Shown: positions 43,215-58,805, counted from the stretch's first letter. The stretch is 64,000 bases of DNA from a virus (IMGVR_UViG_3300021356_000797:1-64000); one strand, 5' to 3'. The notes: a model not told the origin generated them from the letters alone. Translations and numbers: made by a program.

Positions 43215-46200
43215 ATGGCAAAGAAGAAGACTACTTCACAAGCAGCTAATGCTGCTATGCAGATACATACAGACTCTTTTGTAAAAGGGATGGTACAAGA
43301 TGTCAATGAATCTTTTCAGACAGCTGGTACGTGGCCGCATGCAAGAAACGCAGTAAATAATTCTACAGAAGGAGATGTTGGTACATTAGAAAATGAAGCA
43401 TCTACTAAGCTCTGTGTTGAAGTCCCTTATGATGTAATTGGACAGATCCACCTATATGATGATAAGTGGGCAATCTTTACTACTGATGATATCAATAGTG
43501 AGATTGGTATGTTTGATGAAAGCCAGTGTTCTTATACTAAGATTGTCAATGATTCAGTACTAGCTTTTGATAGAAACCATTTAATTAAAGGTGCTGCTAA
43601 AGAAAACTATGATTGTACTTGGCAATTGTACTGGGATGATGGTAAGAACCCATCAAGAACTTTAAATATTGACGACATCCCTTACAAAGTTACTAAGACT
43701 GTAGTGGATGATTGTGTAGTAGAAACTCCTACTGATAAGTTAGATGAAGACCAGATCCGTTTAGCAAGACTAATGGACACTCCTTGTATTACTATAGAGC
43801 AGGGAGAAGTGGGTACACTACTTAATGGTACTTACCAAGTATATATTGCTTACTCTGTAAATGGTACAAGAGTTAGTGATTACATGGCAGCTTCTAATTT
43901 ACAATCTATATTCTTTCATGAGAATAGTGTAGGATCTATTGAAGTTAATATTGAGGGTTTAGATACAGAACGTTTTGATGAGTTTGAGCTTGCTGTTGTA
44001 ACCTATATTAATCAGCAGACAAGTGCTTCTACATTTGGTTATTATTCTACACAAACAAAGCGTATAACTATTGACAGTATAGATCAGCGTTTAGTAGCTA
44101 TTCCATTAAGCATGCTTCTTTTACGTAAGCCTGCTTATGAAAAGTCTGATGCTATGTACACTGTTACCAACTACTTGTTGAGAGTTGGTGTATCAGATAA
44201 GTTTGATTTTAACTACCAACCTTTAGCTAATAAGATTAAAGCTAACTGGGTTGCTGTAGAGTATGATGCAGACTATTACAGAGATGGTGGTAGCAATACT
44301 GGCTATATGCGTGATGAGCAGTATGCATTCTTTATTAGATGGATTTACAATACTGGAGAGAAGTCTAGCTCATATCACATTCCTGGTAGACAAGCTTTCT
44401 CAGGAGATAGACAGCTTTTAGCTCCAGATGGTACAGAGATTTGGGGAGATACCCTACAAGAGAAGTGGAGTGTATATAACACAGCTACAGTAACTAGCAT
44501 TCAAACTGAAAACTTACCAGACGGTGGTAAAGTAGTTAAAAGAGGTAAGATGGGTTACTGGGAGTCTAGTGAAAGATATCCTGATAATAAGCCCGTGATA
44601 TGGGAAGATCTTTGTGGTAAACCTATACGTCACCATAAGATGCCAGATGATTGTATTATTCCTAGACATAATGAGGGTGGTACAAAAATTAACGTATTAG
44701 GTGTAGAGTTTACTAATATCAAACCCCCAGTAGATAATGATGGTAATCTAATTCCTGGTATTGTAGGTTATGAGATTCTTAGAGGATCTAGAAAAGGTAA
44801 TAAGTCTATTATTGCTAAGGGTCTTCTTAACAATATGTTTGAGTACAGTATTCCAGGTAAAGATGGAATTACAGGAATGTATCCTAACTATCCATTTAAT
44901 GATCTTAGACCTGACCCATATCTGACAAAATACTTTCCTGAAGATGGTAGATTAAATCAAGTAAAACGTAATAAGAATAATGAATTTGCAATAGACACCT
45001 ATAGCAAACGTCATTTTACATTTCATTCTCCTGATACACAGTTTAAGCATCCGTTCTTATCAGGATCAGAACTACGTATATATGGAGATGCTGTAGGTTC
45101 TTCTGAGGGTCAGTTTATAGATCCTTACAAACATCCTGAGCACAAGATGTTAGGAGATAGTGTAATGCTTATTGCAGTTCTATTAGGTTTAGGAAATGTT
45201 ATTAGAGGTATGTCTGGAGAGACTACACGAAAAGTTACTTTTCCTAAAGTTGCAGGAGGAAACATTACAGGTGCTGCTGGAGCTGCTGCAGGGATAGCGG
45301 CAGCTATAACTGAAGGAGGTTTACAAGCAACTGGTGTAAACTTTTTAACTAAAATAACAAGTAGTGATGCAGCTTCTAAATTATTAAAATATGGAGCTAG
45401 TGTTGCTTTTGGAGGCGAATATGAAGAAACAACTACAGGTTCTTCATATAGTGAGTTACCTCCATTTTTAAAATTATTTTCAATTGTACCAGCCTTCTTA
45501 ACATTTACTCAGATAGGTACAGATCAAGCATTAGATCTTATTTATAATATGCTTGGTTATAAACAATATGCTTTGCAACACATTGCACACGGTAAGTATG
45601 ATAAGTTTGTATGTACTACATCTGGTAATAAAAGAAGAAAACTTGATAAAGGTATTTACCTAAAGAATCAAAACTATTCATTTGATACAGATAGAAGTAT
45701 TAATAACTTTATGCGTAGCAGAACTGTTGCGCTAGAGGTAGCTAAAAATATTGCAGATCCTATTACTCCAGATACTAGTAAGTATACATTGGGTAGTAGA
45801 CAGTTTTGGGATTTAGATCTTAAGGATGTAAAGGATGAGGTTTTTAATTCAACTATTTCGTCTAAGTATGTTGGAATTAAGATTCAGAATGAAAATCAAT
45901 ACGGTCAGTTAGATAGTATTGCTCAATCTTTAACATCATGTGCCCAGATTTTACCAAGTGTATATGGTGTAAATAGTGAGTTTAAAACTCCTGTTCTATT
46001 TGGAGGAGATATTTACATTACTAGATACACTGAGAAGAATACAATGTTCTTTTTTAATGATTGGTTGGCAGGTAAAGAATTTCAAGATGGTGAGGAATAT
46101 GATTACCGTCAACACATTAATGTACCGTATCCTAGATACTATGCTAACACTCAGAGATATAGATTTGATAATTTTGTAGAAGGGTTAAGCCAAAGTTTAT

Positions 46201-48002
46201 TTAGTCTTACAGGTATTAAAAATTTACTTACAGGATTTCAAAAAGAAGATGACGTACAAGATCAAATTGACACGTTACCTTCTGACTTTCATAACTTAGA
46301 TAGAAAGACCTCCCCTAATGGTTTATTTAGAGCTAAGGGTTGGTTCTATCTTTTTAACTCAGGTGTTAAAGATTTCTTTGTAGAATCAGAAATTAACTGT
46401 GGCTACAGAGATCATGATGATAAGCCTACTACGCGTCACTATGACGACAGAGAATACACAGACTTACAACGTATCTTCCGTGCAGATGAGATCACTGCGG
46501 GTAACCACTTTAAGTATGACTTCTCTCTATCAGCTGGATATTACTTTACTACAAATGTTACTATGGGTAATATTCAGACTAGAGATTATGATCCTGAAAT
46601 ATCAGAGACATGTCATACATACTACCCTAACAGATTGATATACTCTCTGCCACAAGAGCAAACTCTTAAAGTTGATAACTGGAGGACCTTCCTGGTAAAC
46701 AATTATCAAGATTTTAAGAGCCCCCTTACAGCAGTTAAACCTATTGGTGACGCTGGTGCATTAATCATGCTGCGTAGAGAATCTCCTATGTTCTTTGCTG
46801 GTAATGATACCATTCAATCTACAGATGGATTAGAGATTACTATTGGAGACGGAGGACTATTTGATTCACGTCAAAAGATTAGAAACGTAGTTAACACTGA
46901 TGCATCTTATGAGTATGGTAGCTGTCAAAACAGATTAGCTATTAGTGCTACTCCTGCTGGTATCTTCTATGTATCACAGAACCAAGGTAAAATCTTTGCG
47001 TATTCTAATACGCTTAAAGACTTAACTGGTGCTGGAATGAAGTGGTGGTTTGCTAAGTATCTACCATATCAGATTAAAGAAGACTTCCCTGAGTTTGATC
47101 TTGTAGATAACTCTGTAAATGGTGTAGCGGTTTCTACTATCTATGATAACAGAAATGCAATCTTATATATTACTAAAAAGGATTACAAGCTACGTTCTGA
47201 GTATAAGGGTAAAGTAGAATGGATTGAGAATAATATCTTCTCTGTAGGCAATGCAAGAGTAGAGCTTGGGGATAGTAGATTCTTTGAAGATGCTAGCTGG
47301 ACTATTAGCTATGACGTTAAGTCTGGTGCATGGATCTCATTCCATGACTGGCATCCTGATGTATTGCTACCAGGTAAGAATCTATTCATGAGTGTTAAGG
47401 ATAAGAAGATCTGGAAGCACAATAATAGATGTGATAGCTTCTGTAACTTCTACGGTAAAGACTATCCATTTGAAGTAGAACAGATTATCAACACTGGTCA
47501 AATGGTTTCTACTATTAGAAGCTTTGAGTACCAGTTAGAATGTTACCAATACAAGGAGAACTGTAAAGATGAGTTCCATATCCTAGATGCAAACTTTGAC
47601 AGAGCTGTAGTATATAACTCTGAGCAAGTATCAGGTATGCTTAATCTAAATATTTCTCCTAAGAATGACCCTCAAGGAATTTTAGGCTATCCTAAAATAA
47701 ATGTTGCAAGTATTGATATCTTGTATAGCAAAGAAGAAAATAAATACAGATTCAACCAGTTCTGGGATATTACTAAAGATAGAGGTGAGTTTAGTAATGT
47801 GACTCGTAATGTATGGGATACACAACCTAACGGTTACATTAGAACTCTTAACAACTTCAATCTAGACTACACTAAAGATGCACATGAGCATAAAAAGTTC
47901 CGTCACTATAATAACAGATTGTTCTTGAAAAAGAATGTATCAGGAAGAACTAAGATGAGACTGAGGTTAACCAACGCTAAGCTAAATATTTCCCATAGAT
48001 AA
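43215..48002 (+). CDS. tail muzzle / tail stabilization protein (P22 gp10-like beta-propellers)
   Basis: 1595 aa; GYMRDEQYAF, FGGDIYI, WTISYD..WISFHDW motifs of the crAss-like tail stabilization protein. Confidence 0.8.
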   Translation: MAKKKTTSQAANAAMQIHTDSFVKGMVQDVNESFQTAGTWPHARNAVNNSTEGDVGTLENEASTKLCVEVPYDVIGQIHLYDDKWAIFTTDDINSEIGMFDESQCSYTKIVNDSVLAFDRNHLIKGAAKENYDCTWQLYWDDGKNPSRTLNIDDIPYKVTKTVVDDCVVETPTDKLDEDQIRLARLMDTPCITIEQGEVGTLLNGTYQVYIAYSVNGTRVSDYMAASNLQSIFFHENSVGSIEVNIEGLDTERFDEFELAVVTYINQQTSASTFGYYSTQTKRITIDSIDQRLVAIPLSMLLLRKPAYEKSDAMYTVTNYLLRVGVSDKFDFNYQPLANKIKANWVAVEYDADYYRDGGSNTGYMRDEQYAFFIRWIYNTGEKSSSYHIPGRQAFSGDRQLLAPDGTEIWGDTLQEKWSVYNTATVTSIQTENLPDGGKVVKRGKMGYWESSERYPDNKPVIWEDLCGKPIRHHKMPDDCIIPRHNEGGTKINVLGVEFTNIKPPVDNDGNLIPGIVGYEILRGSRKGNKSIIAKGLLNNMFEYSIPGKDGITGMYPNYPFNDLRPDPYLTKYFPEDGRLNQVKRNKNNEFAIDTYSKRHFTFHSPDTQFKHPFLSGSELRIYGDAVGSSEGQFIDPYKHPEHKMLGDSVMLIAVLLGLGNVIRGMSGETTRKVTFPKVAGGNITGAAGAAAGIAAAITEGGLQATGVNFLTKITSSDAASKLLKYGASVAFGGEYEETTTGSSYSELPPFLKLFSIVPAFLTFTQIGTDQALDLIYNMLGYKQYALQHIAHGKYDKFVCTTSGNKRRKLDKGIYLKNQNYSFDTDRSINNFMRSRTVALEVAKNIADPITPDTSKYTLGSRQFWDLDLKDVKDEVFNSTISSKYVGIKIQNENQYGQLDSIAQSLTSCAQILPSVYGVNSEFKTPVLFGGDIYITRYTEKNTMFFFNDWLAGKEFQDGEEYDYRQHINVPYPRYYANTQRYRFDNFVEGLSQSLFSLTGIKNLLTGFQKEDDVQDQIDTLPSDFHNLDRKTSPNGLFRAKGWFYLFNSGVKDFFVESEINCGYRDHDDKPTTRHYDDREYTDLQRIFRADEITAGNHFKYDFSLSAGYYFTTNVTMGNIQTRDYDPEISETCHTYYPNRLIYSLPQEQTLKVDNWRTFLVNNYQDFKSPLTAVKPIGDAGALIMLRRESPMFFAGNDTIQSTDGLEITIGDGGLFDSRQKIRNVVNTDASYEYGSCQNRLAISATPAGIFYVSQNQGKIFAYSNTLKDLTGAGMKWWFAKYLPYQIKEDFPEFDLVDNSVNGVAVSTIYDNRNAILYITKKDYKLRSEYKGKVEWIENNIFSVGNARVELGDSRFFEDASWTISYDVKSGAWISFHDWHPDVLLPGKNLFMSVKDKKIWKHNNRCDSFCNFYGKDYPFEVEQIINTGQMVSTIRSFEYQLECYQYKENCKDEFHILDANFDRAVVYNSEQVSGMLNLNISPKNDPQGILGYPKINVASIDILYSKEENKYRFNQFWDITKDRGEFSNVTRNVWDTQPNGYIRTLNNFNLDYTKDAHEHKKFRHYNNRLFLKKNVSGRTKMRLRLTNAKLNISHR

Positions 48003-51000
48003 TGAAAGGCCGGATTACTAAAACAGGGTATAGAAGAAATTCACCAGACGTGAATAATGACTTTAATATTATTCCTAGTAATAGGATTAGTATGAAAGGC
48101 GTAGACTTTCCTGTGTTGGGTATTGATAACTTGGGCAATACTCAATTAATGCATCCCGGAGGAGAGTATGAATATCAAGGAGATTATGTCACAGAGCTCC
48201 CTATGTATGGTTCTGGTGGCCTCACTCAGTGGTTTGCAGAGGAATGGGTGGACATTAAGACTGGTAAAAAATGTGGTAGATCTGGAAAAGACAAAAAGGG
48301 AAGACCTTACCCAGCGTGTAGACCAAGCAAAAGAGTAAACAAGACAACACCTAAGACAGCTTCTGAGTTATCTGCAGCTGAGAAAGCTAAGTTTAAAAGA
48401 AAGAAGAAGTCAGGTAAACGTATTGATTATAATCATAAGCGTGCTCAAGAAGGTACTGAAGTCCCATTAAATCGTAGTGAAGTATTTAACATTCCTAGAA
48501 CTCTTAGATATGAAAATGGTAATATGGTTCTTCAAGATAAACCTGTCTGGGACGGAATGCTTGACGAAGTTACTATTACTCCTTATACTCAATCTGAAAT
48601 TGCATTTCAGGAACTAATGAATAATAAAGCAACTGGAGGTTTAGAGCCTGTATATCCTGTATTTGAGGTGCTTAGTGCAGGTATAAAAACTCCTTTTACA
48701 GCAAGTGCTAAAGCTTTACAAACTGGCGTTAGAAAAGCTCCTTCTGTAATTAACCCTAGATATTTTAAACCTAACTCTAACATGTACTATAGAGGTATAG
48801 GTAAAAAAGGTATGGAAGATGCTTTACAGTCGGGGTTGTTTAGAGCTAAACCTGCTGATCAAATTCCTGCACGCATGGTAGATTTAGGATCTGTGGGTAA
48901 AGTAGACATGGCTAAACGTTTTAATAAGACTTACTATAGTCCTCGTTTTAATATTGCAGATCAATATGGTGCAGGATATATAGCAGAGGTACCTAAAGAT
49001 GCAGCTAAGTTTAGCAAACGTTATAAAAACACTGACTGGAGCATGTCTACTAGAGAACAGATTCCAGTTAGTAAAGGCCGTATACTAGAAAAAAATTGGT
49101 GGTCTGGTTATAAACCAGTTAAAAAATACGGAGGTTCACTACCTAAAGCTCAGGAAGGTAATAGTGAAGCACCATTAAACCGTGGTGAAATATTTAATAT
49201 TCCTAGGACAATGGGATATGAAGATGGTAAAATGGTTGTTCAAGACAAACCTATCTGGGATGGTATGCTTGACGAGGTTACTATTACACCTTATACGCAA
49301 GGTAATATTTTATCTGAGTATATGATGAATAACAAAGCTACAGGAGGATTAGAACCAGTATACCCTGTTTTTGATTTAATGACTTTAGGTTTAAAAGCTC
49401 CTGCAACAGCTGGGGTTAAAGCTATACAAGCGGGTATTAAAAAAGCACCTTCTAAATTAAACCCTAAGTATTATAATCCTAATATGTATGCAAAAGGGAA
49501 TCCAAACGTTATGTATAGACAGGTTGGAAAAGATGCTTATCAGGATTTTGCAAATAGTGGATTTGTGAGAACTAAAGCTGAAATTACAGATAATCCTATA
49601 TTAGGGTTACTTGAGACACAAAAAGAAATAAAAGATGTTCTACGTTATAATAAAGAGTATAGACCATCTCAATATAGACACGCTACAGACTTTAGAGCTC
49701 CTTTTTTTAGCAGAGGTAAAACAACTACAATAAAAGATGGGGGTGCTGATTACTTGATTCAAACTCGTCCTGATAAAGTTGGACCTAATAATTTTTATAG
49801 TGCACAGTGGAATATTCTTCATGGAGATCAGCCGCCCGTTGTAGGTGGGTTTGGAATAATGGATCCTATGTACAGAGCTGCGGATAACTTTGATGTATTT
49901 AAGAAAAGTTGGTGGCATGGTTATAAACCGGTTAAACAATTAGGAGGATCTTTAACCAAATATCAAGTACAAGGAGAAGTATTTCCTACAATGCTTGATG
50001 AAGTAACTGTTATTGATAAAGGAGCGCCTTCTGCATTTGGTAAAGGAAGTTCAGATAGAATGGGTACTACCTATACTATTCCAATGAATATAAAAAATGC
50101 TAGAGGGTATAGTCAAAATGGAATGCGTGTTTTATTTGACAGCCCTGGTAAATTAGCAAAAGATGCTCAAAAGGAATTTAGATCTCAATTTGGTTTTAAT
50201 GCTAATAAGTTAAAGAAGAATTTTAAAAACATATTTAGTCAAGACTTTATAACTCTTGGAGATGATCAGACTTTTCAAAATGCAGCTTATGCTGGCCCCA
50301 TGAGTTTAAGTAATTCTTATTTTATTAATGAGTCAGATAATATTATTGAGCCAAGAACTATTAGCAGGAGTAATACAAAAGTTACTACTAACCTTATTAA
50401 TAATGATAGATCTGCTTTACTTGCAGATATGGCAAGACCTGGTACTAAAGCAGACTTTTTTAATTTATTTCAACAACGTGAAGGTTTTAGACCTTATTTA
50501 GAGGCTAAGGTTAGTAATGGTAAAGTGTATGATGCTAAACTTGGTGAGGAAGATGTTACATCCAGAAGTCCTTTTGAATCTAATATGATTAACTATCTAG
50601 GTAGTGATGCATATTTTGAAAGACTTGCTGGCACTCAATATAATAATGAGATAGATGTTAATAAATGGTCTACAGATAAAGACTATAGAAAATCTTATGC
50701 AGAACGTTTAAAAGCAGATAAACCAGAATTCCTTAAAAATTATTATGAAGGTCTTTCAAAAACTCTTGCAAATCCTATAGTTGCTGAAATAGATCACAAT
50801 CTTGGATCATATGCTAGTGCAGGAACACATAACCATGGAACTTTAACAGGACAAAATGTTATAGATTACAACCCTTATAACTTTAATAATGCCTTTGGAG
50901 GAGCAGAGAAAAGAAAAGAAGCCTTGATAAAAGAGTTAGAACGTAGAGGGGCTACTCCTGCGGAAATTGATGTAACAATGGAATATGGTATAGGGCCAGG

Positions 51001-52537
51001 AATGAATGATAATTTTTCCGATGTAATGTCTCATGAGCTTGCCCATGTTTATAGTCTGGGATCTAAAGATTATATTTTAAATAATGAGTCTGCAAACGTA
51101 GCTCCTGGTATAGATAAAGAATATGAGCTTTTATGGAATATAAACAAAGACACAAAAGATCAACCTTTTTATTCATATCAAAACCATTTAAATACTGGGT
51201 CAAAACCTATTAGTTATAATACTGCTTTAAACAGTGAAATACAAAATGTTGCTGACCGTTTAAATACTAGGTACCATAACATTTCTCCTGAAGAAACTAA
51301 AGCTGATGTATATGGTATCAGAAACTATCTTCTTAGAACTCAAGGTCAAGATTATGATCAACCCTTTACTAAAGAAAATTATGATTCTTTAATGAATGAT
51401 GACAAATTTAAAGAAGGTTTGTTTTATAAGCGCATGCAAGAAAGATATGGTGATGATCAATCTAAATGGATGAAAGCTATGAATCTTATTGCTTCAAAAG
51501 AAGATGGTAAAAATTATAGAATGTATGCAGAACGTGGTGGGCAGTTGCCTAAAGCTCAAAAGGGTAATGGTGAAAAACACACTGTAGCATCAGGTGAAAC
51601 ATTCTATGGTATTGCTAATAAAAATGGTATTGCTTGGGAAGATCTTGTTAGTGCTAACCCAGGTGTTGATATAGAAAAACTTTCAGTTGGTCAGATCATT
51701 AATATCCCATCTGTTTCAAAATCAGGGGGTGTAAAAATTACATACTCAGATCCTGAACTTAACATTCTTCAGCAAGAAAGAGAGCTTGGAAATATAAAAC
51801 AATCAGAGCCAGAACAAGTAGAACAGGTTAAAATTACAAAGCAACCTGTTGAAACTAAAACTACTCAGGTATATGATGGTCCTGGTTATTTTCCAGAAGC
51901 GTTGCTACTTAAGCAAGCATATAAAGAATCTACATTTAATCCGGCTGCTCAATCTAAGATTAAAGATCCGGCTCAAGGATTTGCCCAGTTTAGACCTATT
52001 ACTGTAAGAGAATTGCAGAGACTAGGTTTTGCTGATGATACATTTGATCCTTTTGATTACACTCAGTCTATTGGTGCTCAAAGAGATTATATGAACTATT
52101 TGTATACTAGACCATGGATAGATAAGCCTAATCAATCTGAAGAGGTGAGATTAGCAAAAACATTAGCAGCATATAATTGGGGACCAGAAGTATTTAAGAC
52201 ATTCTTGACTAATAAGAAAGCAGCTGGAGTAGATATATATAACTCCTTAGATTGGGTAGATCAATTACCTGGAGAAACTGGTGATTATATTAATAAGATT
52301 TTATTAGATAGTGATGAGCAATTCCAGGCAGATTATCAAAAAGCTCTTAAAGACAGTGCTAACTTAAAGTACATTAACCTTTATAATCTAAAAGCAGGAG
52401 GAGAATCTCTACCAGTATATAATACATATAAGACTAAGAATAGAGCTTGGTTAGCAGCGCGTAAAAATTTAGGCGCTAATAAGAAGTTTATGTACGGTGG
52501 TAAAGTTTACTCTACAAGCACACCTAAAGGGCTGTAA
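48002..52537 (+). CDS. multidomain internal virion (cargo) protein: basic module, two ART-like cassettes, zincin, LysM, lytic transglycosylase (SLT)
   Basis: HTVASGETFYGIA...LSVGQIINIP (LysM); KESTFNP..GFAQF..AAYNWG..ET.DYI (SLT); SHELAH; internal duplication. Confidence 0.75.
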   Translation: MKGRITKTGYRRNSPDVNNDFNIIPSNRISMKGVDFPVLGIDNLGNTQLMHPGGEYEYQGDYVTELPMYGSGGLTQWFAEEWVDIKTGKKCGRSGKDKKGRPYPACRPSKRVNKTTPKTASELSAAEKAKFKRKKKSGKRIDYNHKRAQEGTEVPLNRSEVFNIPRTLRYENGNMVLQDKPVWDGMLDEVTITPYTQSEIAFQELMNNKATGGLEPVYPVFEVLSAGIKTPFTASAKALQTGVRKAPSVINPRYFKPNSNMYYRGIGKKGMEDALQSGLFRAKPADQIPARMVDLGSVGKVDMAKRFNKTYYSPRFNIADQYGAGYIAEVPKDAAKFSKRYKNTDWSMSTREQIPVSKGRILEKNWWSGYKPVKKYGGSLPKAQEGNSEAPLNRGEIFNIPRTMGYEDGKMVVQDKPIWDGMLDEVTITPYTQGNILSEYMMNNKATGGLEPVYPVFDLMTLGLKAPATAGVKAIQAGIKKAPSKLNPKYYNPNMYAKGNPNVMYRQVGKDAYQDFANSGFVRTKAEITDNPILGLLETQKEIKDVLRYNKEYRPSQYRHATDFRAPFFSRGKTTTIKDGGADYLIQTRPDKVGPNNFYSAQWNILHGDQPPVVGGFGIMDPMYRAADNFDVFKKSWWHGYKPVKQLGGSLTKYQVQGEVFPTMLDEVTVIDKGAPSAFGKGSSDRMGTTYTIPMNIKNARGYSQNGMRVLFDSPGKLAKDAQKEFRSQFGFNANKLKKNFKNIFSQDFITLGDDQTFQNAAYAGPMSLSNSYFINESDNIIEPRTISRSNTKVTTNLINNDRSALLADMARPGTKADFFNLFQQREGFRPYLEAKVSNGKVYDAKLGEEDVTSRSPFESNMINYLGSDAYFERLAGTQYNNEIDVNKWSTDKDYRKSYAERLKADKPEFLKNYYEGLSKTLANPIVAEIDHNLGSYASAGTHNHGTLTGQNVIDYNPYNFNNAFGGAEKRKEALIKELERRGATPAEIDVTMEYGIGPGMNDNFSDVMSHELAHVYSLGSKDYILNNESANVAPGIDKEYELLWNINKDTKDQPFYSYQNHLNTGSKPISYNTALNSEIQNVADRLNTRYHNISPEETKADVYGIRNYLLRTQGQDYDQPFTKENYDSLMNDDKFKEGLFYKRMQERYGDDQSKWMKAMNLIASKEDGKNYRMYAERGGQLPKAQKGNGEKHTVASGETFYGIANKNGIAWEDLVSANPGVDIEKLSVGQIINIPSVSKSGGVKITYSDPELNILQQERELGNIKQSEPEQVEQVKITKQPVETKTTQVYDGPGYFPEALLLKQAYKESTFNPAAQSKIKDPAQGFAQFRPITVRELQRLGFADDTFDPFDYTQSIGAQRDYMNYLYTRPWIDKPNQSEEVRLAKTLAAYNWGPEVFKTFLTNKKAAGVDIYNSLDWVDQLPGETGDYINKILLDSDEQFQADYQKALKDSANLKYINLYNLKAGGESLPVYNTYKTKNRAWLAARKNLGANKKFMYGGKVYSTSTPKGL
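48443..49475 (+). repeat. duplicated ~110-codon header (about 48443-48770 and 49148-49475) inside the cargo protein
   Basis: AQEG..PLNR.E.FNIPRT..YE.G.MV.QDKP.WDGMLDEVTITPYTQ...MNNKATGGLEPVYPVF occurs twice. Confidence 0.9.
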
Positions 52538-52558
52538 ATATGGTAGTCTGCTATAATT

Positions 52559-52570
52559 TTTGTATATTAT
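52559..52570 (+). promoter_or_regulatory. putative late promoter TTTGTATATTAT
   Basis: Recurrent motif 23 nt upstream of ATG 52593. Confidence 0.62.
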
Positions 52571-52592
52571 AAATGAGATATCGTAACTAGTT

Positions 52593-53954
52593 ATGTCAAA
52601 AAATATTCCCACAAATAAGAAGCTTTATGCTAGAGTAAAAGCAGAAGCTAAAAAGAAATTTGATAGATGGCCTTCTGCCTATGGATCTGCCTGGCTTGTA
52701 AAAGAATACAAGAAACGTGGCGGAGGTTATAGAAAGGCAGAAGAAGGAATGGAAGTTCCTGATTATGGTTACGGTGGCGGCATGAACTATGCAGACTATG
52801 CTTACATGTATGGTGGTGAAGATGCAGACATGATGGAATATGCAAAGGGTGGTGGGATACCTGAGCGTTACAAGAACATGGGATTCACTAAAGTAGGTGT
52901 AAAGAAAAAGTCTACACGTCCTGGTAAAAAGTGGATGGTACTTGCTAAGAAAGGAGACAAGTACAAAGTGGTACACGGTGGTTTTAAAGGAATGAAAGAC
53001 TACACCCAACACGGTAGCTCTAAAAGACGTAAACGTTTTTGGGATAGAATGGGTGGTAAAGACTCTGCTAAAGCTAAAGATCCATTTAGCCCACTATACT
53101 GGCACAAGAGATTTGGTACCTGGGAAGAAGGTGGTGAAATCTTTAATGAGGATTCTATGGATTTCTACGCACAAGGTGGTGGTACAGATAACCCAGGATT
53201 TAAAGCATTACCTCCAGAAGTACAGCAAAACATTCTAGACAATATGGGTATTGGTGGTGAGTGCTATGCTTGTGGTGGTCAAAAGAAATATCAGCTTGGT
53301 GGTAAGCCTGGAAATCCATTTACTCAAGAAGAGTTGGATTATATGGAGAGCATGTATCAACAACCTGATCTAGAATATTTACCTTATCCAGATGATACTG
53401 GTAACTTGGATGTAATGTACCCAAACCCAGCCATGGGGTTAGATGTAATGCCCCCAGACTCAACTATAGAGTTAGATGAAGTGGTAGTAACAGATACTAG
53501 ACTTGGTGGTTTAAAGCCTAAGCCAATTCCAGATATGACTCCGGAAATGTTTGAGCCTGCTTTAATGCCGGTAACACTACCAGAAAGAGTGGAGTCTTAT
53601 ATAGAAGATCCAGAGAAAGAGGAAGAGCAAAAGAATAAGCCTAATAGAAGATTACAGTGGGCTATGGGTAGAATTGCTATGGCTAATGCTGCAAATCAGT
53701 TTATGGAAAACATGAATGACCGTAAACAAGAAGCTAAAATGAGACAGAATCTTCTTACTGATAACTTTGTACCAATGATTACAGGTAATGACAGAGGAGA
53801 CTATGATATAAATACAGGTATCTTTAGACCTGATGATTATGTACCTACACAGTTTCAATCTTTTATGGCAAAGGGTGGACAGATTGGTATGGTAGATGAA
53901 GACATATTACAAGAACTTATTGCAGCAGGTGCTGACATTGAAATCTTAGACTGA
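52593..53954 (+). CDS. cargo protein made of short basic modules separated by xxxGG motifs
   Basis: Nine [YMW]xxGG motifs; PSAYGSAWLVKEYKKRGG and STRPGKKWMV..DYTQH modules. Confidence 0.72.
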   Translation: MSKNIPTNKKLYARVKAEAKKKFDRWPSAYGSAWLVKEYKKRGGGYRKAEEGMEVPDYGYGGGMNYADYAYMYGGEDADMMEYAKGGGIPERYKNMGFTKVGVKKKSTRPGKKWMVLAKKGDKYKVVHGGFKGMKDYTQHGSSKRRKRFWDRMGGKDSAKAKDPFSPLYWHKRFGTWEEGGEIFNEDSMDFYAQGGGTDNPGFKALPPEVQQNILDNMGIGGECYACGGQKKYQLGGKPGNPFTQEELDYMESMYQQPDLEYLPYPDDTGNLDVMYPNPAMGLDVMPPDSTIELDEVVVTDTRLGGLKPKPIPDMTPEMFEPALMPVTLPERVESYIEDPEKEEEQKNKPNRRLQWAMGRIAMANAANQFMENMNDRKQEAKMRQNLLTDNFVPMITGNDRGDYDINTGIFRPDDYVPTQFQSFMAKGGQIGMVDEDILQELIAAGADIEILD

Positions 53955-55906
53955 TGAAGAAGATAAAAATTAATAAACTTCCTAAAGGCTTTCACAGAAT
54001 GCCAGACGGCACAATCATGAGAGACTCAGACCACCAGAAAATGCAAGCTGGTGGTCAACCTGTTTTAGGGCCAACACCTAGAGCAGCAGCTAATCTTGAA
54101 GCAGAAAAGGGAGAAACAGTTGTTACAGATTTAGATAATAACATGATTCCTGAGCACTATAAGATTGGTGGTAAGAAGCACAGTGAAGGTGGTACACCTC
54201 TTAATCTTCCTCCCAAGTCTTTTATCTTTTCAGATCATAAGTCTATGTCAATTAAAGGTGATGACTTAAAGAAGTTTACTAACACTAGTAAAAAGTCTAT
54301 GACCCCAGCAGCTATTGCAGGGTTAAAGAAGTTTGACATTAGTGAAGAGAATAAAATTCTAAAAGATCAAGATGCAGATAAAATGGCTAAGGCTACTGCA
54401 GAGCGTAACATTCAAGCTAAGCTTGTCAAGTTAGGAGAGCTTGCTATGCTTCAAGAGTCTAAGAAAGATTTTGATAATGGTATTCCTGAAATTGCGTTGC
54501 CATATTTAAAACGTAATGGAGTAACTCCTGAACAAGTAGAGATGATTAATGCAGAGCTTGAGCAGAGAAATATGATGGAAGAAATGGCTGCTTATGGTAA
54601 AGAGATGTATGGATGGGGTGGTCAAAAGAAAATGCAGGGAGGTGGTCAGCCTAATGTATCTTATGCTCCTGATGCATTAAAAGTATTTAATCAATATGGT
54701 CTAACATTTAGTTTACCTGGTGCAACTGCATACGCAGATGTACAGGGTTATAAAGGAGATGGTCTATTCGGTGATGCTGAAACTAACCTTCCTGGGTTCT
54801 TTGAAGAGTTTACTGGAGTGTACTCTGATATTGATGCACTTAAAGAATCTTTAGATGATTATGGTGTTAATGATGTAAACCCTGAAGTTAAGAAATTCCA
54901 AGAGTGGTATACTAATACCCACATTCCTGAAGTAGCAAATCAGATTCGTGCTGAAGTAAAAGAGAAGAGAGGTTATGAGATGACTGATGATGAGTTCAAC
55001 GGTCTTGTAACTGGTCTTACTAGTGAGTTTGGTTTTCAGGATGGTAAGAAAGGATTTGGATTTGATGGTAAGATGGGTACTGTAACTTCTGGTAGAAGAA
55101 GGTTAGGTTACTCTATAGATCCTATTGAAGATACCCCGGAAATTACACCACCAGAAACTATTCCTTATGAAGGAGAGGGTAGTGATACTAATTTTTATCA
55201 GCAAGATCTTGTAAAGATTGGTGCTAAGCTTGCAGATAGAGCAAACAGATACTATGGTTATACTCAAAGATTACAACCATACTTACCTGATCCGGTATTC
55301 TTAGATCCTGAAAGAGAGTTGCAAGCTAATCAAGAGGCTTATGCTACAGCTGCAGCTACTCAAGGTCTTGTGGGCAGAGGTCAAAATTTAGCCGGCAATC
55401 TTTCTTTAATGCAAGGAAAGCTGGCGGAGCAACAAGCTAATACATTAGCTAGATATACAAACGCTAATAATCAAATAGCTAACAGCTTTGAGCTTAAGCG
55501 TGGAGATGCTATTAATGCTTTCCAAGAGTACAACGCATTGCAGAATAGACAGCAAGCTATGGATACTGCCATTGTTAACCAGCAGTATGATAACTTTAGA
55601 CGTCAGAAAAGAAATGATTTGGCTAATCTATATGCACAAGCTTTAACTAACAGAGCAGAAACAGATCTTCTTAATGATCTGTATCCTCAATATAGTATTG
55701 AACCTTTAACTGGGGGTATGGGATACTTTACCGGTAGAGGTTGGGATCCTAATTCTGATATGACTGCTTATGATAAGTTCCGTCAACAGTATTTACAAAC
55801 TACTTTAGGAGGCCCTAGAACTAAAGAAGAAGGCTCAGTACAAAAGAAATATGGTGGTTCTGCCTATAACAGAATGGGATTGAGTAAATTTATCAAGCGT
55901 AAATAA
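53954..55906 (+). CDS. internal virion cargo protein
   Basis: NLEAEKGE...GKKHSEGG...FIFSD motif typical of crAss-like cargo proteins; Gln/Ala/Asn-rich helical C-half. Confidence 0.68.
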   Translation: MKKIKINKLPKGFHRMPDGTIMRDSDHQKMQAGGQPVLGPTPRAAANLEAEKGETVVTDLDNNMIPEHYKIGGKKHSEGGTPLNLPPKSFIFSDHKSMSIKGDDLKKFTNTSKKSMTPAAIAGLKKFDISEENKILKDQDADKMAKATAERNIQAKLVKLGELAMLQESKKDFDNGIPEIALPYLKRNGVTPEQVEMINAELEQRNMMEEMAAYGKEMYGWGGQKKMQGGGQPNVSYAPDALKVFNQYGLTFSLPGATAYADVQGYKGDGLFGDAETNLPGFFEEFTGVYSDIDALKESLDDYGVNDVNPEVKKFQEWYTNTHIPEVANQIRAEVKEKRGYEMTDDEFNGLVTGLTSEFGFQDGKKGFGFDGKMGTVTSGRRRLGYSIDPIEDTPEITPPETIPYEGEGSDTNFYQQDLVKIGAKLADRANRYYGYTQRLQPYLPDPVFLDPERELQANQEAYATAAATQGLVGRGQNLAGNLSLMQGKLAEQQANTLARYTNANNQIANSFELKRGDAINAFQEYNALQNRQQAMDTAIVNQQYDNFRRQKRNDLANLYAQALTNRAETDLLNDLYPQYSIEPLTGGMGYFTGRGWDPNSDMTAYDKFRQQYLQTTLGGPRTKEEGSVQKKYGGSAYNRMGLSKFIKRK

Positions 55907-55950
55907 ACCTTGAAGGTTTACTAAACTTACCAGATTTTTTAGTATATTGT
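55905..55950 (+). promoter_or_regulatory. palindrome AAACCTT-g-AAGGTTT followed by promoter variant TTTAGTATATTGT
   Basis: Read directly, upstream of ATG 55965. Confidence 0.55.
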
Positions 55951-55964
55951 ATATATAGACTAGT

Positions 55965-58805
55965 ATGGCAACATTTATTCCAAATATAGGTGACGTAACT
56001 CCTGAAGTAGAGTACTTTAGACCTAATCTAGAACTTATGGCTGGCTACTTGGAAACAAGACAAGGCCAGTTTAATGCTGCTAGAGATGAGCTAAATACAA
56101 TGTACAATACATTGATGTCTCTAGATCTTACATTAGATGAGAATAAGAAAAGACGAGAAGAGTACTTCAAGGCTGCAGACCAGCAGATTAAAAAGTTTGC
56201 TAATGTAGATATCAGCTTACCTGAAAACATTGCTGCTGCTAAACGTGTATTCAGTCCTTTGGTAGAAGATGAAGCAATGTCTGAAGATTTCTTGTTTACT
56301 AGCAAGATTAAAAATATCATAACTACTGCAGAAAAGTTTAGAAACAGTTCTGAGGAAGAGGATAGAGCTAGATATAATCCAGAATCAATTAAGTATGCTC
56401 AGTTAAAGCAACAGGAGTACATCAATGCTTCTCCGGAAGCAAGAAAAGGTGTATCTAATTCTACTGTTAGATACGTATCTAATGTCAATCTTATGGAGAA
56501 AGCTACGGCTTTAGCTAAAGAGATGGACTTAAATGTAACTATAGATAGTATTACTGGAGGTTATAAAGTAACTAATAAGAATGGTCAGTTGATTACTCCT
56601 CAACTGCAACAGGCTTTTACTGATGCTTTTATGTCAGATCCTGAAGTTGTAGAATATTACGAGCAAAGAGCTTATGTGGATGTACAAAGTCAGATTCAAA
56701 GCTTGGCCCCTCAGCTTGGTTATCAGGGTGCTATAGATGCACTATCTCAAACACTTCAGGCTTCTAGCCAATTACTATTTGCTAAAAATGCAGAAGAGGC
56801 AAAAAAAGCTAAAGAAGTTTTAGATGCTCAGCGTAGAATTATTGAAAATAAAATTGAAACTGAAGGGATTGTTGAGGGCTCTGAAGCTCATAGAGACTAC
56901 CTTAATGTTTTAAAGAATTTAGAAACAGCTTCTAATAACCAAGAAATTGCGGCTCAAGGTTTAGGCTTGTCTTTAAATCAATTAAACTCTACAGAAGAAT
57001 TATATAGTCTGGCTTTCCGTTTATCACTTAGTGAAGATATTCAACGTGCAGCCCAGATCTTATCTGATAGAGGTATGGAGCAAACTGTTAAAGAAGATGC
57101 GTTTGCACTAGAAGCTGTTAAACAGCAGAATAGATTAGAACTTGCTTTATTTAAAGCAGAACTTGAGAATGCTGGAAGTTCTAGTTCAGGACAAAGTGGT
57201 GTTAGCTGGGATCCTGTACAAGCTGCAGTAGATGCCGGTGCTAGAAGCCGTGGTGCAGAAGGTACAGAATATGCTGGTAACTTAGATATCACTACTGCTA
57301 AATCTGCATTAAAAGGTTATGTAGATATAGAAGAAGATATGTACCGTAAATTTATTACCAACTTCTTGAGTAAAGAAAATGGTGGATATCTCAGCAGCGT
57401 AGGTGGCGGTTCTGCAAATGGTAAGGCTGCTGTAGATGCGTATCTTGCAGAGTTAGATGCTTTAGGTCCTCTAGAAAGACAGGAAAGAATTGCAGATGAT
57501 CTACTAGAGATTTCACAAAGTGGTCATAGCTATGATGCTAAAGCATTAGAAGATATGGAGGCTATGGTAAACAGCATTGCTGCAGCTAATAATGCAGTTA
57601 ATGGAACTGTTTATCAATCTCACAGGCTATTACAACAGGAATATGCAGGTCAACCAGATGAGCTAATGCTATCTGAGTTAATGTTTGATGATGCTGGTGT
57701 AATTTTATCTGAGAGCCAGTTTGTAAATCAAGCTACAGATTTTGTAAATGCTAATATAGCACGTCAAGATGGGGGTAGAGGATTTGATCAAAATAGATAT
57801 ACTAGTTATAGACAAACTTTTGATAACTATGGTAGTGCATATCCTACTTATGCAGAAGCAGATCCAAATAAGTTAAAAGAACTTTATCAGGTATATAAAA
57901 ATAATATTGATAATATCTATAAAAATAATAGTGTTAATGTTCATCAATACTTTGATCCAGATATAGTTGGGGGAGGTTCCAGCCGTGCATTTGAAGTTAA
58001 TGCTTCATATGTTGCAGATCCTATGACTTACTACAATAAAAAGAAAGCAGGTCATCAGAATTCTAAAAAAGCATTTACAGTTATAGCTGGTACTGTTATG
58101 GCTGCTAAAAATTCAGATAGCTACATCTATCCTGGTTCAATGATTGAAAATAATTATTTTGGACTAGATGCTTTTCCAGATGGGGAAGATAACAAGATGG
58201 TTATAGAAAACGCTGCAACAGAATTGCTTAATAGCTTTTTACAAACCGCTCAAAAATCTAATGATGGTAGCTCTGTAGGTAGACCTACGGCTATAGTAGA
58301 TGTTGCAAAAGGAATTACTATTGGAGATAAACGTTATGTAGCTACACAGATTACATTTGATGAAACCTATATGGCTGGATTAAAAGAAGATAATCCAGGT
58401 AAGTATAAAGATGCTCCAAGTAAATACACCATTTTTACACCTCAAGAAGCTATGCCTGTTGGCTACTTCCCTAGTGATGGATCAGGAGCTTTAATGGCTT
58501 CTATTATAGCTAGTGGTGAACGCACTACACAATTCCCTCAAGGGCTAGGATCAGTTACTTATACTTATGATGATGAGTCTGGATTGATTCAAGTCTATGG
58601 TAAAATTAAAAGCCTTAATCCAGAAAATGGAGGCTATGAAATGAGAGAGTATGTAGAGTCTGTAGATGAAGAAAACTTTGACATTGTAAGAAATTCTGTA
58701 TGGAATGTAGTTCAGGCAACTCTTGAATCTAATGAACAACGCTTAAAAGAATTAGAAGCGGCACAAGGTATTACAAGGGTTACTGATCCTAATAAATTAA
58801 AGTAA
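55965..58805 (+). CDS. internal virion / ejection protein
   Basis: 946 aa, helical, no Cys seen, position after muzzle and cargo genes. Confidence 0.62.
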   Translation: MATFIPNIGDVTPEVEYFRPNLELMAGYLETRQGQFNAARDELNTMYNTLMSLDLTLDENKKRREEYFKAADQQIKKFANVDISLPENIAAAKRVFSPLVEDEAMSEDFLFTSKIKNIITTAEKFRNSSEEEDRARYNPESIKYAQLKQQEYINASPEARKGVSNSTVRYVSNVNLMEKATALAKEMDLNVTIDSITGGYKVTNKNGQLITPQLQQAFTDAFMSDPEVVEYYEQRAYVDVQSQIQSLAPQLGYQGAIDALSQTLQASSQLLFAKNAEEAKKAKEVLDAQRRIIENKIETEGIVEGSEAHRDYLNVLKNLETASNNQEIAAQGLGLSLNQLNSTEELYSLAFRLSLSEDIQRAAQILSDRGMEQTVKEDAFALEAVKQQNRLELALFKAELENAGSSSSGQSGVSWDPVQAAVDAGARSRGAEGTEYAGNLDITTAKSALKGYVDIEEDMYRKFITNFLSKENGGYLSSVGGGSANGKAAVDAYLAELDALGPLERQERIADDLLEISQSGHSYDAKALEDMEAMVNSIAAANNAVNGTVYQSHRLLQQEYAGQPDELMLSELMFDDAGVILSESQFVNQATDFVNANIARQDGGRGFDQNRYTSYRQTFDNYGSAYPTYAEADPNKLKELYQVYKNNIDNIYKNNSVNVHQYFDPDIVGGGSSRAFEVNASYVADPMTYYNKKKAGHQNSKKAFTVIAGTVMAAKNSDSYIYPGSMIENNYFGLDAFPDGEDNKMVIENAATELLNSFLQTAQKSNDGSSVGRPTAIVDVAKGITIGDKRYVATQITFDETYMAGLKEDNPGKYKDAPSKYTIFTPQEAMPVGYFPSDGSGALMASIIASGERTTQFPQGLGSVTYTYDDESGLIQVYGKIKSLNPENGGYEMREYVESVDEENFDIVRNSVWNVVQATLESNEQRLKELEAAQGITRVTDPNKLK

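Follow-up and report, generated by a model that had tools for sequence, protein, structure and literature searches.

What function is served by a short peptide ending in two glycines that recurs throughout three consecutive genes of a marine crAss-like phage? The window (the whole stretch of DNA analysed here, 64,000 nt) is the left 64 kb of the 103.8-kb genome of this phage, and in it genes A, B and C (48002-55906) lie immediately 3' of the muzzle gene. They also precede the block of the virion RNA polymerase (vRNAP, a 2929-aa protein starting at 62589, with DFDID at residue 2150), and this is the position occupied by crassvirus cargo genes of the C1/C2 type. The cargo identity proposed in the first-pass annotation holds as far as gene position is concerned; a six-frame search of the entire genome at E <= 10 gave no match to PF25725 (crAss_CARG1, the portal-bound domain of crAss001 gp45). 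Judged by the genes alone, the three proteins are probably carried in the particle and injected. A distant relative sharing the N-terminus of gene A, gp041 of phage phi17:2, is annotated as a virion structural protein. The locus is composed of the following units:

43215..48002, + strand: muzzle protein gene (PF25731 crAss_MUZ, 8.6e-29; phrog_37948, 1.4e-57), which opens the cargo block (context)
48002..52537, + strand: gene A
48002..48220, + strand: A residues 1-73, conserved N-terminal unit ending in YGSGG; phrog_36695 (virion structural protein) at residues 6-81
48221..48418, + strand: A residues 74-139, C-terminal half of DUF5872, basic, starting right after GG (PF19197 positions 53-114, 2e-12)
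48419..49135, + strand: A residues 140-378, tandem cassette 1, header KRAQEG...MLDEVTIT, end WWSGYKPVKKYGG
49136..49948, + strand: A residues 379-649, tandem cassette 2, start SLPKAQEG (double motif), end KPVKQLGG
49949..51541, + strand: A residues 650-1180, large module, start SLTKYQVQG, end YAERGG; its C-terminal 330 aa are a putative zincin-like metallopeptidase (HELAH at 1011-1015)
51542..52402, + strand: A residues 1181-1467, LysM at 1193-1236 (PF01476, 4.6e-10; PDB LysM matches) and SLT lytic transglycosylase at 1298-1407 (PF01464, 2.1e-8), SKSGG between them, end LKAGG
52403..52537, + strand: A residues 1468-1511, conserved C-terminal unit ending in FMYGG plus an 11-aa tail
52593..53951, + strand: gene B
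52593..52727, + strand: B residues 1-45, N-terminal half of DUF5872, two helices, end KKRGGG (PF19197 positions 1-42, 7.5e-10)
52728..52856, + strand: B residues 46-88, array of Tyr/Met-rich mini-units of 12-18 aa, each ending in GG(G); predicted disordered, pLDDT 29-33
52857..53135, + strand: B residues 89-181, folded unit with DUF5754 (PF19058, 3.3e-9), internal GG129-130 and GG154-155, end WEEGG; pLDDT 65-89
53136..53303, + strand: B residues 182-237, four short units ending in YAQGGG, MGIGG, YACGG and YQLGG; main insertion hot spot in relatives
53304..53951, + strand: B residues 238-453, Pro/Glu-rich and disordered, LDEVVVT at 294-300, long helix 352-389, FMAKGG, then a strongly conserved 24-aa C-terminal helix
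53954..55906, + strand: gene C (650 aa), N-terminal handle MKKIKINKLPKGF...KMQAGG (1-34), conserved N-domain to KKMQGGG (231), variable middle, conserved C-domain to QKKYGG (635), basic tail

Genes A-C thus contain the two DUF5872 halves, DUF5754, a zincin-like metallopeptidase module and LysM-SLT, and gene A by itself (DUF5872 C-half, zincin-like module, LysM, SLT) places at least two effector-type domains of unrelated kinds on a single polypeptide encoded among phage late/virion genes, as polyvalent proteins do. Its N-terminus is found in the close relative L001 (86% identity over residues 1-154), as well as in phi17:2 gp041 and Leptolyngbya phage JY46, and its two tandem cassettes are 42% identical (E 4e-69). 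The zincin-like module (AF2 model with pTM 0.75; H162, E163, H166, H243 and E249 nearly invariant in 13 homologs) had fold hits in VIA-align that were nearly all to zincins, the best being neprilysin, PepO, ECE-1 and Zmp1 (Z 6.2-6.7; lethal factor, Z 5.0); Foldseek returned nothing at E <= 0.001, and only 14 representatives were present among 1.8 billion proteins. No Pfam MPTase-PolyVal or LPD family was significant here, and the ESM-Atlas gave a weak lead to LPD23 (0.77). The first 45 residues of gene B (AF2 helices 9-22 and 29-41, pLDDT 73-90) share 78% nucleotide identity with the stand-alone gp70 of Roseobacter phage CRP-2, and its C-terminus recurs in the relatives L002 and L003 and in JY46. 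Gene C had no Pfam or PDB match by sequence; it has residues 1-237 (80%) and 387-649 (48%) in common with L001, the middle being replaced.

All 19 pentapeptides named in the first-pass annotation were recovered in place (e.g., YGSGG at 48206, KKYGG at 49121, KQLGG at 49934 and AERGG at 51527), and its claim of a recurring motif in three consecutive genes is borne out by the counts. The pattern [YMAKWFL]xxGG, permissive in that its first-position set covers 36% of residues, matched the three proteins 28 times (7.9 +/- 2.7 in 5000 shuffles), the stricter [YMFW]xxGG 16 times (3.1 +/- 1.8) and the bare GG dipeptide 39 times (21.8 +/- 4.3), numbers that no or almost no shuffles reached. Raw GG was clearly enriched only in gene B (17 observed vs 5.7 expected; A, 13 vs 10.2; C, 9 vs 6.1), hence what stands out is the surroundings of GG and not how often it occurs: of the 39 GG sites in A-C, 16 have Y/M/F/W at the third residue upstream, compared with 13/157 in all other ORFs of the genome (Fisher P = 3.8e-6). 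In the rest of the 103.8-kb genome (cargo genes D-G, other virion genes and non-structural genes) the motif occurs at expectation. The three double motifs, GG-xL[PT]K[AY]Qx[GQ], were likewise confirmed, all in gene A (377-386, 648-657 and 1179-1188). Some GG pairs are not at borders, such as GG129-130 inside the DUF5754 hairpin of gene B and 'NNKATGG' inside the duplicated header of gene A.

A logo of 141 non-redundant contexts placed Y/M/F/W at P5 in 66% of them, with Q/A/K at P4, Y/C/M at P3 and E/Q at P1', and a weaker hydrophobic enrichment at -6/-7 reminiscent of an amphipathic helix. Both glycines are invariant at most junctions in 58 homologs down to 50% identity, YQLGG being one that drifts (to YQLAG or YQFAG in close homologs), and in 120 larger relatives Y/M/F/W occupies -3 at 50% of 2388 GG sites, vs a background of 14%. 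Motifs stand 3-24 aa from the C-termini and about 30 aa past the N-terminus of gene C. As the junctions share no identity at the DNA level, selection acts on the peptide. The pattern is therefore real, and our literature search found no paper that describes it.

The first-pass annotation had further held that the motifs delimit swappable modules, and proposed to look for their coincidence with domain gain and loss among related phages; the breaks indeed fall there. In gene B homologs, 52% of 56 non-redundant clean insertions had both ends within 3 residues of a GG (3.7% at random), and indel ends fell at the motif roughly 14-fold more frequently than expected by chance. Relative to L001, approximately 1300 aa of gene A have been exchanged, the right break lying exactly after LKAGG, where similarity restarts (BLAST, A 1464-1511 = L001 453-500); L001 is without the zincin module and has kept the motif, and swaps in genes A and C break at or near it. 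The intervening pieces also behave as the independent units that had been suspected, since some are stand-alone genes in the unrelated roseophage CRP-2, and Pfam enzyme domains of larger relatives (YkuD, SET, glucosaminidase) each sit within one GG-delimited segment (DUF3597 is also among the domains added in relatives). In relatives, the module that begins gene B is also seen at internal positions immediately behind a GG, and some of them have genes A and B fused. Such comparisons support a construction of A-C from independent units, gained, lost and swapped at the motif.

In the AF2 model of B, helices 29-41, 143-152, 208-220 and 422-425 stop 1-2 residues before GG, and confident blocks (1-50, 89-176, 198-220) are split by low-pLDDT motif arrays. 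The published cryo-EM model of crAss001 gp45 runs continuously through AFGG428-W429, QGG435 and EGG448, thus those three sites are uncut in the mature virion. We tentatively prefer, as a possible explanation, that the junction peptide is an uncut helix stop and hinge between independently folding beads of an ejected, polyvalent-type cargo. Each module ends in a peptide of amphipathic character in which Tyr/Met/Phe precedes a nearly invariant Gly-Gly by three residues, and a header such as xLPKAQxG frequently comes next; a strong helix stop combined with a flexible hinge would keep the beads apart, so that a loosely folded chain could be packed, pass through portal and tail in threaded form and regain its fold one bead at a time, and a new module could go in with its neighbours left undisturbed. 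This hinge and threading role, which we infer, fits some observations poorly: the invariance of GG and the preferences at P5, P4 and P1' exceed the needs of a floppy hinge, the arrays of near-bare motif units of 7-18 aa (B 46-88, 223-237) are left unexplained, and motifs lie near both chain ends, as pro-peptide borders do. Moreover, if gp45 is intact, twelve chains must cross the portal tunnel in crAss001, which cut fragments would avoid.

The first-pass annotation had taken the motifs for maturation-protease sites or capsid-packaging tags. Under the former scheme, which we consider rather unlikely, the cargo polyproteins would be cut after Gly-Gly in head maturation or, more likely, post-ejection, by a cargo zincin (A 850-1180, or HExxH in the vRNAP and in the gene after it), an undetected phage protease or a host protease, freeing DNA-binding, wall-degrading and other modules. 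It would make sense of the invariant GG and constrained P5, P4 and P1', of motifs near either end of the chains (with the mini-units as possible spacer peptides), of the stand-alone modules in CRP-2, the internal B module placed right after GG and the A-B fusions, and it could draw on the conserved HExxH...E of the zincin-like fold in gene A and on HExxH in cargo F and G. Cleavage at GG-X is what core proteins of adenovirus and ASFV undergo. However, C5 (PF00770) and C48 (PF02902) gave no match at E <= 1 in six frames (in a record estimated to be 87% complete, so that a gene in the missing part is possible), nor did C39 (PF03412) in the genome at E <= 1, hence the search for proteases of these types that the first-pass annotation suggested came back empty. 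A prohead protease, which a T4-type capsid targeting sequence would call for in the head module, was found neither in Pfam scans of the remaining ORFs of at least 100 aa nor among ten genes near portal and capsid that were scanned with PHROG, many ORFs matching no family; the scans of the head module recovered terminase, portal, capsid and ring proteins. Between portal and capsid lies a 421-aa gene whose product is acidic, coiled-coil and scaffold-like. Candidate enzymes are limited to the zincin-like HExxH modules inside the cargo. Zincins usually choose a hydrophobic P1', yet P1' here is mostly E or Q, and the gene A zincin is missing in L001 although the motif is kept. The register differs as well: the adenain-type consensus, (M/I/L)-X-G-G-X cut before the final X, has its hydrophobic residue at P4, whereas here the hydrophobic/aromatic residue is at P5 and P4 is Q/A/K. 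Double-glycine leaders of C39 are N-terminal, with hydrophobic residues at -4, -7 and -12; we rejected this candidate because the motifs are internal and repeated, have their hydrophobic register at -5 and occur in a genome in which no C39 domain was detected. The intact gp45 sites, the GG pairs within folded domains, the drift of YQLGG and the lack of motif avoidance in other virion/cargo proteins (a low-power test) further argue against cleavage. Protease cutting, a candidate role only, is not supported. We regard as unlikely, too, a related formulation in which Phi-x-x-Gly-Gly would be the recognition site of a crAss-like phage processing system (candidates: cargo-borne zincin, cryptic protease or host enzyme) that, once ejection has taken place, cuts the injected polyproteins to yield numerous small effectors and DNA-binding proteins; if true, crAss-like cargo would be the first tailed-phage counterpart of adenovirus/ASFV GG-X core-protein processing.

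It is similarly unlikely, in our estimation, that the motif is a docking or loading 'sticker', by which repeated aromatic/Met-x-x-GG and KIKxLPK(A)Q-type headers would bind a repeated site such as portal, tail-barrel rings, scaffold or capsid interior, or each other, bring several MDa of cargo into the procapsid and retain it there up to ejection. Tandem bare-motif arrays do suggest avidity, the post-GG header looks like the authentic N-termini found in gene C and in its relatives (MKKIKINKLPKGF here, MKIRIIGLPKAQIG in JY46), and few parts of the family are as well conserved as the C-terminal helix that follows the last GG in gene B. In crAss001 (PMC10172136), gp45 segments are bound to the portal wing and to tail rings R1/R2 (12 copies each), the rest of the cargo zone being unordered; yet these ordered contacts are made by module bodies, with only residues 425-428 of the motif visible, at the edge of the portal-bound domain, and structure offers a simpler account of why the motif sits where helices end. 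As for a meaningless compositional accident of Gly/Tyr-rich low-complexity sequence, the near-expectation GG counts in A and C and the permissive first regular expression are in its favour, but we reject it as of negligible probability given the shuffles, the position-specific signal, the invariance of GG in homologs, the excess of indel ends at the motif and the enrichment at -3 in larger relatives.

Returning to the uncut hinge that we prefer, its closest counterparts are the crAss001 cargo proteins C1/C2 (gp45 and gp46), which, according to Bayfield et al. 2023 (PMC10172136; PDB 7QOG, 7QOI, 7QOJ, 7QOL, 8CKB), are virion-internal, encoded immediately behind the muzzle gene and believed to leave the particle in a partly unfolded state. 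Genes A-C share this post-muzzle position, gp45 carries the motif (FSAYGG, LKAFGG, WNAFGG, MFAYGG), and its cryo-EM-ordered parts (214-245, 425-552) each lie within one GG-delimited segment (211-265, 429-563). The searched portions of that article leave the motif unmentioned and contain no term for cleavage, proteolysis or protease. Unlike gp45, with which sequence similarity is undetectable (gene C, BLASTP E about 1; no PDB or PF25725 match), there are three such genes here, endowed with zincin, LysM-SLT, DUF5872 and DUF5754 units that gp45 is without.

Adenain-like GG-X sites (adenovirus AVP, ASFV pS273R) and C39 leaders also combine GG with an upstream hydrophobic residue at unit borders of genome-packaged proteins, but differ in their enzymes (C5, C48 and C39, not detected here), in their P4 register and in that motif-type sites are intact in the crAss001 virion. 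Polyvalent proteins (Iyer, Burroughs, Anand, de Souza, Aravind 2017, PMC5512222) resemble A-C in joining unrelated effector domains in one chain delivered with DNA, including a zincin-like metallopeptidase (putative in gene A) and a lysozyme/transglycosylase, and in their extensive mosaicism; they differ in the MPTase-PolyVal/LPD families, none of which is significant here. The words 'glycine' and 'linker' are absent from that paper, thus the junction motif is not described there. Autoprocessing by MPTase domains, a point in favour of cleavage, has been predicted for them (PMC5512222) and for crAss-like RNAP polyproteins (bioRxiv 10.1101/2020.03.07.982082). Podovirus ejection proteins (N4 vRNAP gp50, PMC13434306; T7 gp14-16) are likewise large internal proteins that have to traverse a channel of 30-45 A, and loosely folded subdomains are their presumed storage form; the modules of A-C are far smaller and freely swapped, and the passages searched mention no conserved junction peptide for theirs. 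Partial cargo unfolding (crassvirus, PMC10172136) and a beads-on-a-string N4 vRNAP (PMC13434306) have been proposed.

The phage is crAss-like (G+C about 37%), and the window covers positions 1-64,000 of a 103,840 bp source record estimated to be ~87% complete. It encodes the terminase, the portal, the crassvirus major capsid protein and tail ring proteins 1 and 2, as well as the muzzle protein and three cargo-type genes (A, B and C):

43215-48002, muzzle protein (PF25731, 8.6e-29)
48002-52537, gene A, 1511 aa, directly after the muzzle gene
52593-53954, gene B, 453 aa
53954-55906, gene C, 650 aa

Downstream of gene C lie, in this order, proteins of 946, 1259, 2929 and 1805 aa, the third of which carries DFDID, a motif of the virion RNA polymerases (vRNAP) of crAss-like phages. 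The 650-aa and 946-aa cargo proteins (window 53954-58805) contain no cysteine; there are 1-2 in each of cargo proteins A, B, E, F and G, versus 16 in the muzzle protein. Crassvirales count the most abundant human gut phages among their members and are common in the sea too. The nearest cultured relatives (Leptolyngbya phage Lbo-JY46 and Cellulophaga phages phi17:2 and phi4:1) share only 27-28% identity in the muzzle protein, and no closer cultured relative with proteomics was found. In crAss001 (PMC10172136) the equivalent position is occupied by the cargo proteins gp45 and gp46 together with RNAP-associated proteins.

Genes A-C are marked by a recurrent peptide, aromatic/Met-x-x-Gly-Gly ([YMFW]xxGG; P5 being the residue three before GG), for which a chance origin is excluded. 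All 19 motifs listed by the first-pass annotation are present at their positions, and its three double motifs (GG-xL[PT]K[AY]Qx[GQ], in gene A) are real. The pattern used there matches 28 times in genes A-C (7.9 +/- 2.7 in shuffled sequences) and [YMFW]xxGG 16 times (3.1 +/- 1.8); Y/M/F/W stands at -3 of GG in 41% of the A-C sites versus 8% elsewhere in the genome (P = 3.8e-6). In the remaining cargo, other virion and non-structural genes the motif occurs at its expected frequency. As the raw number of GG is clearly above expectation in gene B only, the signal resides in the context of the glycines. From the gathered gene B homologs (907 of similar length and 428 longer), a logo of 141 non-redundant GG contexts gave Y/M/F/W at P5 in 66%, with Q/A/K at P4, Y/C/M at P3 and E/Q at P1', and among 2388 GG sites of 120 longer relatives Y/M/F/W occupied P5 in 50% (background 14%). 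The junction glycines are mostly invariant (G43-44, G154-155, G180-181, G228-229 and G428-429 in 58 aligned homologs, down to 50% identity). Codons at the junctions vary freely between sites, which places the constraint on the peptide and rules out a DNA recombination signal.

The pieces between the motifs are heterogeneous, with eight parts in gene A:

gene A part 1, N-terminal unit, in common with virion protein gp041 of phi17:2, itself a bearer of NFQAGG, TFQIGG, KFQSGG and KLKWGG
gene A part 2, C-half of DUF5872
gene A parts 3 and 4, tandem cassettes, 42% identical to each other
gene A part 5, large module with HELAH in its last 330 aa (zincin-like module, window 50549-51541, gene A residues 850-1180); H, E, H ... 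H, E nearly invariant
gene A parts 6 and 7, LysM, then SLT
gene A part 8, small conserved C-terminal unit
gene B, N-half of DUF5872, Tyr/Met-rich mini-units, a DUF5754 unit, more short units, the LDEVVVT-bearing disordered stretch, a conserved helix at the C-terminus

For gene C neither a family nor a PDB match was found; likewise, no homology to crAss001 gp45 emerged with BLASTP, PDB phmmer or PF25725, and we therefore do not claim the resemblance of the N-domains seen by eye. The peptide (M)LDEV[TV][IV]T recurs near module starts (window 48560-48577, 49268-49285 and 49994-50011 in gene A, 53472-53489 in gene B). We take LDEVVVT to resemble the TonB box of Bacteroidota SusC-like transporters, an analogy that raises the idea of a TonB-assisted, colicin-like pulling of the ejected chain.

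Module borders coincide with the motif. The first-pass annotation had suggested testing whether domain gain and loss breaks there, and insertions and deletions among gene B homologs reveal that it does: in P0019, P0042, P0062 and P0094 the inserted pieces run exactly from GG to GG, each itself terminating in x-x-GG. With the comparison based on indels with well-aligned flanks (global alignment of divergent homologs being too noisy), 52% of 56 non-redundant insertions had each end no more than 3 residues away from the end of a GG, versus 3.7% under random placement. Offsets of 2-3 residues are frequent at insertion ends and reflect alignment slide, and insertions away from GG fall in the Pro/Glu-rich, GG-free portion of gene B. 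Some GG sites are not borders, GG129-130 lying within the DUF5754 hairpin and NNKATGG within the duplicated header of gene A.

Breaks at or near the motif also emerge from a close relative (L001; 80% identity over the gene C N-domain). Gene A of L001 has in common with ours only residues 1-154 and a C-terminal block (BLAST 1464-1511), between which ~300 different amino acids replace ~1300, and similarity restarts directly after LKAGG; in gene C the middle is replaced too, a few residues past KKMQGGG. In this phage the DUF5872 C-half begins immediately after YGSGG in gene A and the N-half forms the start of gene B, terminating in KKRGGG, while larger relatives carry the halves in reversed order with GG on both flanks of each. 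In Roseobacter phage CRP-2 each of the two small modules is a gene of its own, in keeping with the earlier view of the pieces as independent units. Over window 52608-52723 (116 nt, DUF5872 N-half) the DNA is 78% identical to the stand-alone gp70 of CRP-2, a phage of an alphaproteobacterium; such identity is unusually high for a module shared across host phyla. The YkuD, SET and glucosaminidase domains of larger relatives are each contained in a single GG-delimited segment. In the larger gene B homologs P0212, P0215, P0062 and P0189 this GG-delimited frame houses SET-domain, YkuD L,D-transpeptidase, glucosaminidase and DUF3597 modules, a content that suggests a diverse set of injected tools against the cell wall and possibly host proteins.

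We reason that the junction peptide may remain uncut within the virion, acting as a helix stop and hinge that would make each bead an autonomous folding unit; this is the reading we favour, albeit tentatively and short of calling it probable. In the AF2 model of gene B the helices terminate 1-2 residues ahead of GG and disordered motif arrays alternate with confident blocks, and the hydrophobic periodicity upstream of GG, although weak, is compatible with an amphipathic helix; together these favour a hinge. They are consistent with the partial-unfolding model for crassvirus cargo (PMC10172136) and the beads-on-a-string view of the N4 vRNAP (PMC13434306). A hinge leaves unexplained the invariance of both glycines and the arrays of bare motifs, and for this reason two rivals remain close. 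A multivalent docking or loading tag, which we judge unlikely, would account for why the header following GG resembles the genuine N-termini of gene C-type proteins. Processing after GG, most plausibly following ejection, is also unlikely, if a little less so. In its favour, autoprocessing has been proposed for the MPTases of polyvalent proteins (PMC5512222) and for crAss-like RNAP polyproteins (bioRxiv 10.1101/2020.03.07.982082), and candidate enzymes are present, namely a predicted zincin-like module in gene A and HExxH motifs in the vRNAP and the next protein. The AF2 model of the gene A module (pTM 0.75) had no significant match in Foldseek, and exhaustive VIA-align returned zincin metallopeptidases as nearly all top matches (neprilysin, PepO, ECE-1 and Zmp1 at Z 6.2-6.7, lethal factor at 5.0, then thermolysin and M1 aminopeptidases). 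Given these matches and the conserved HExxH, we take it as a predicted zincin-like peptidase of a rare family (14 representatives in 1.8 billion proteins), one not restricted to phage cargo, since the homolog P0144 has a membrane or pilin-like N-terminal region. Against its being the general enzyme, it is absent from L001, which retains the motif. The other two motifs (HEGWH, residue 690 of the 2929-aa vRNAP, genome 64656-64670; HEFSH, residue 138 of the 1805-aa protein, genome 71789-71803; both outside the window) are probably the zincin-like domains that have been reported from the RNAP block of crAss-like phages, and Pfam found no family in either protein.

Processing is further weakened by the genome scans. 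The C48, C5 and C39 peptidases suggested by the first-pass annotation gave no match at E <= 1 in a six-frame genome search, and an adenain-like site does not fit the register (hydrophobic residue at P5 here, at P4 in adenain). No prohead protease was detected in the rest of the genome with Pfam (cargo D-G and the remaining ORFs of at least 100 aa, minus a few overlapping or antisense frames) and PHROGs (ten head-module genes). The sole peptidase-like Pfam match outside the cargo, a DUF2201_N putative metallopeptidase with a VWA-like domain, lies at genome 77-103 kb in the replication block, which also has a MoxR-like AAA_5 match; we set it aside as belonging to the wrong module for a virion enzyme. 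For a 421-aa protein between portal and major capsid protein (window 9090-10355) the only match was to a PHROG family of unknown function; its N-terminal third is very acidic and its C-terminal part a coiled coil, features that led to its rejection as a protease and make it a likely scaffolding protein. Other virion and cargo proteins showed no depletion of the motif such as a protease footprint would leave, in a comparison of low power.

Evidence against cutting during maturation, as proposed in the first-pass annotation, comes from crAss001, whose cargo protein gp45 has motifs of the same type (FSAYGG210, LKAFGG333, WNAFGG428 and MFAYGG563, numbered as in the PDB chains). PMC10172136 describes gp45 425-552 as a single compact portal-bound domain and 214-245 as a tail-barrel helix, and both ordered parts are confined to a single GG-delimited segment each (429-563 and 211-265). 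The model is continuous through AFGG428|W429, QGG435 and EGG448, so these sites are uncut in the mature particle, a result that bears on maturation cleavage and not on post-ejection cutting. The mass spectrometry in the same study (a single excised gel band from purified virions) is uninformative on chain ends.

No description of the motif was found by full-text searches or in the accessible text of the crAss001 structure paper, the Crassvirales review and the polyvalent-protein paper. At module borders the junction peptide offers a simple rule for splitting otherwise unannotatable cargo into units, and it accounts for the slotting-in of effector modules (wall hydrolases, metallopeptidase, SET, YkuD). 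Crassvirus particles are loaded with, and deliver, several MDa of protein. Whether GG is cut or uncut bears directly on how crAss001 gp45 occupies both tail and capsid. Set beside these known systems, the motif is a new feature on a known kind of protein rather than a new kind of system.
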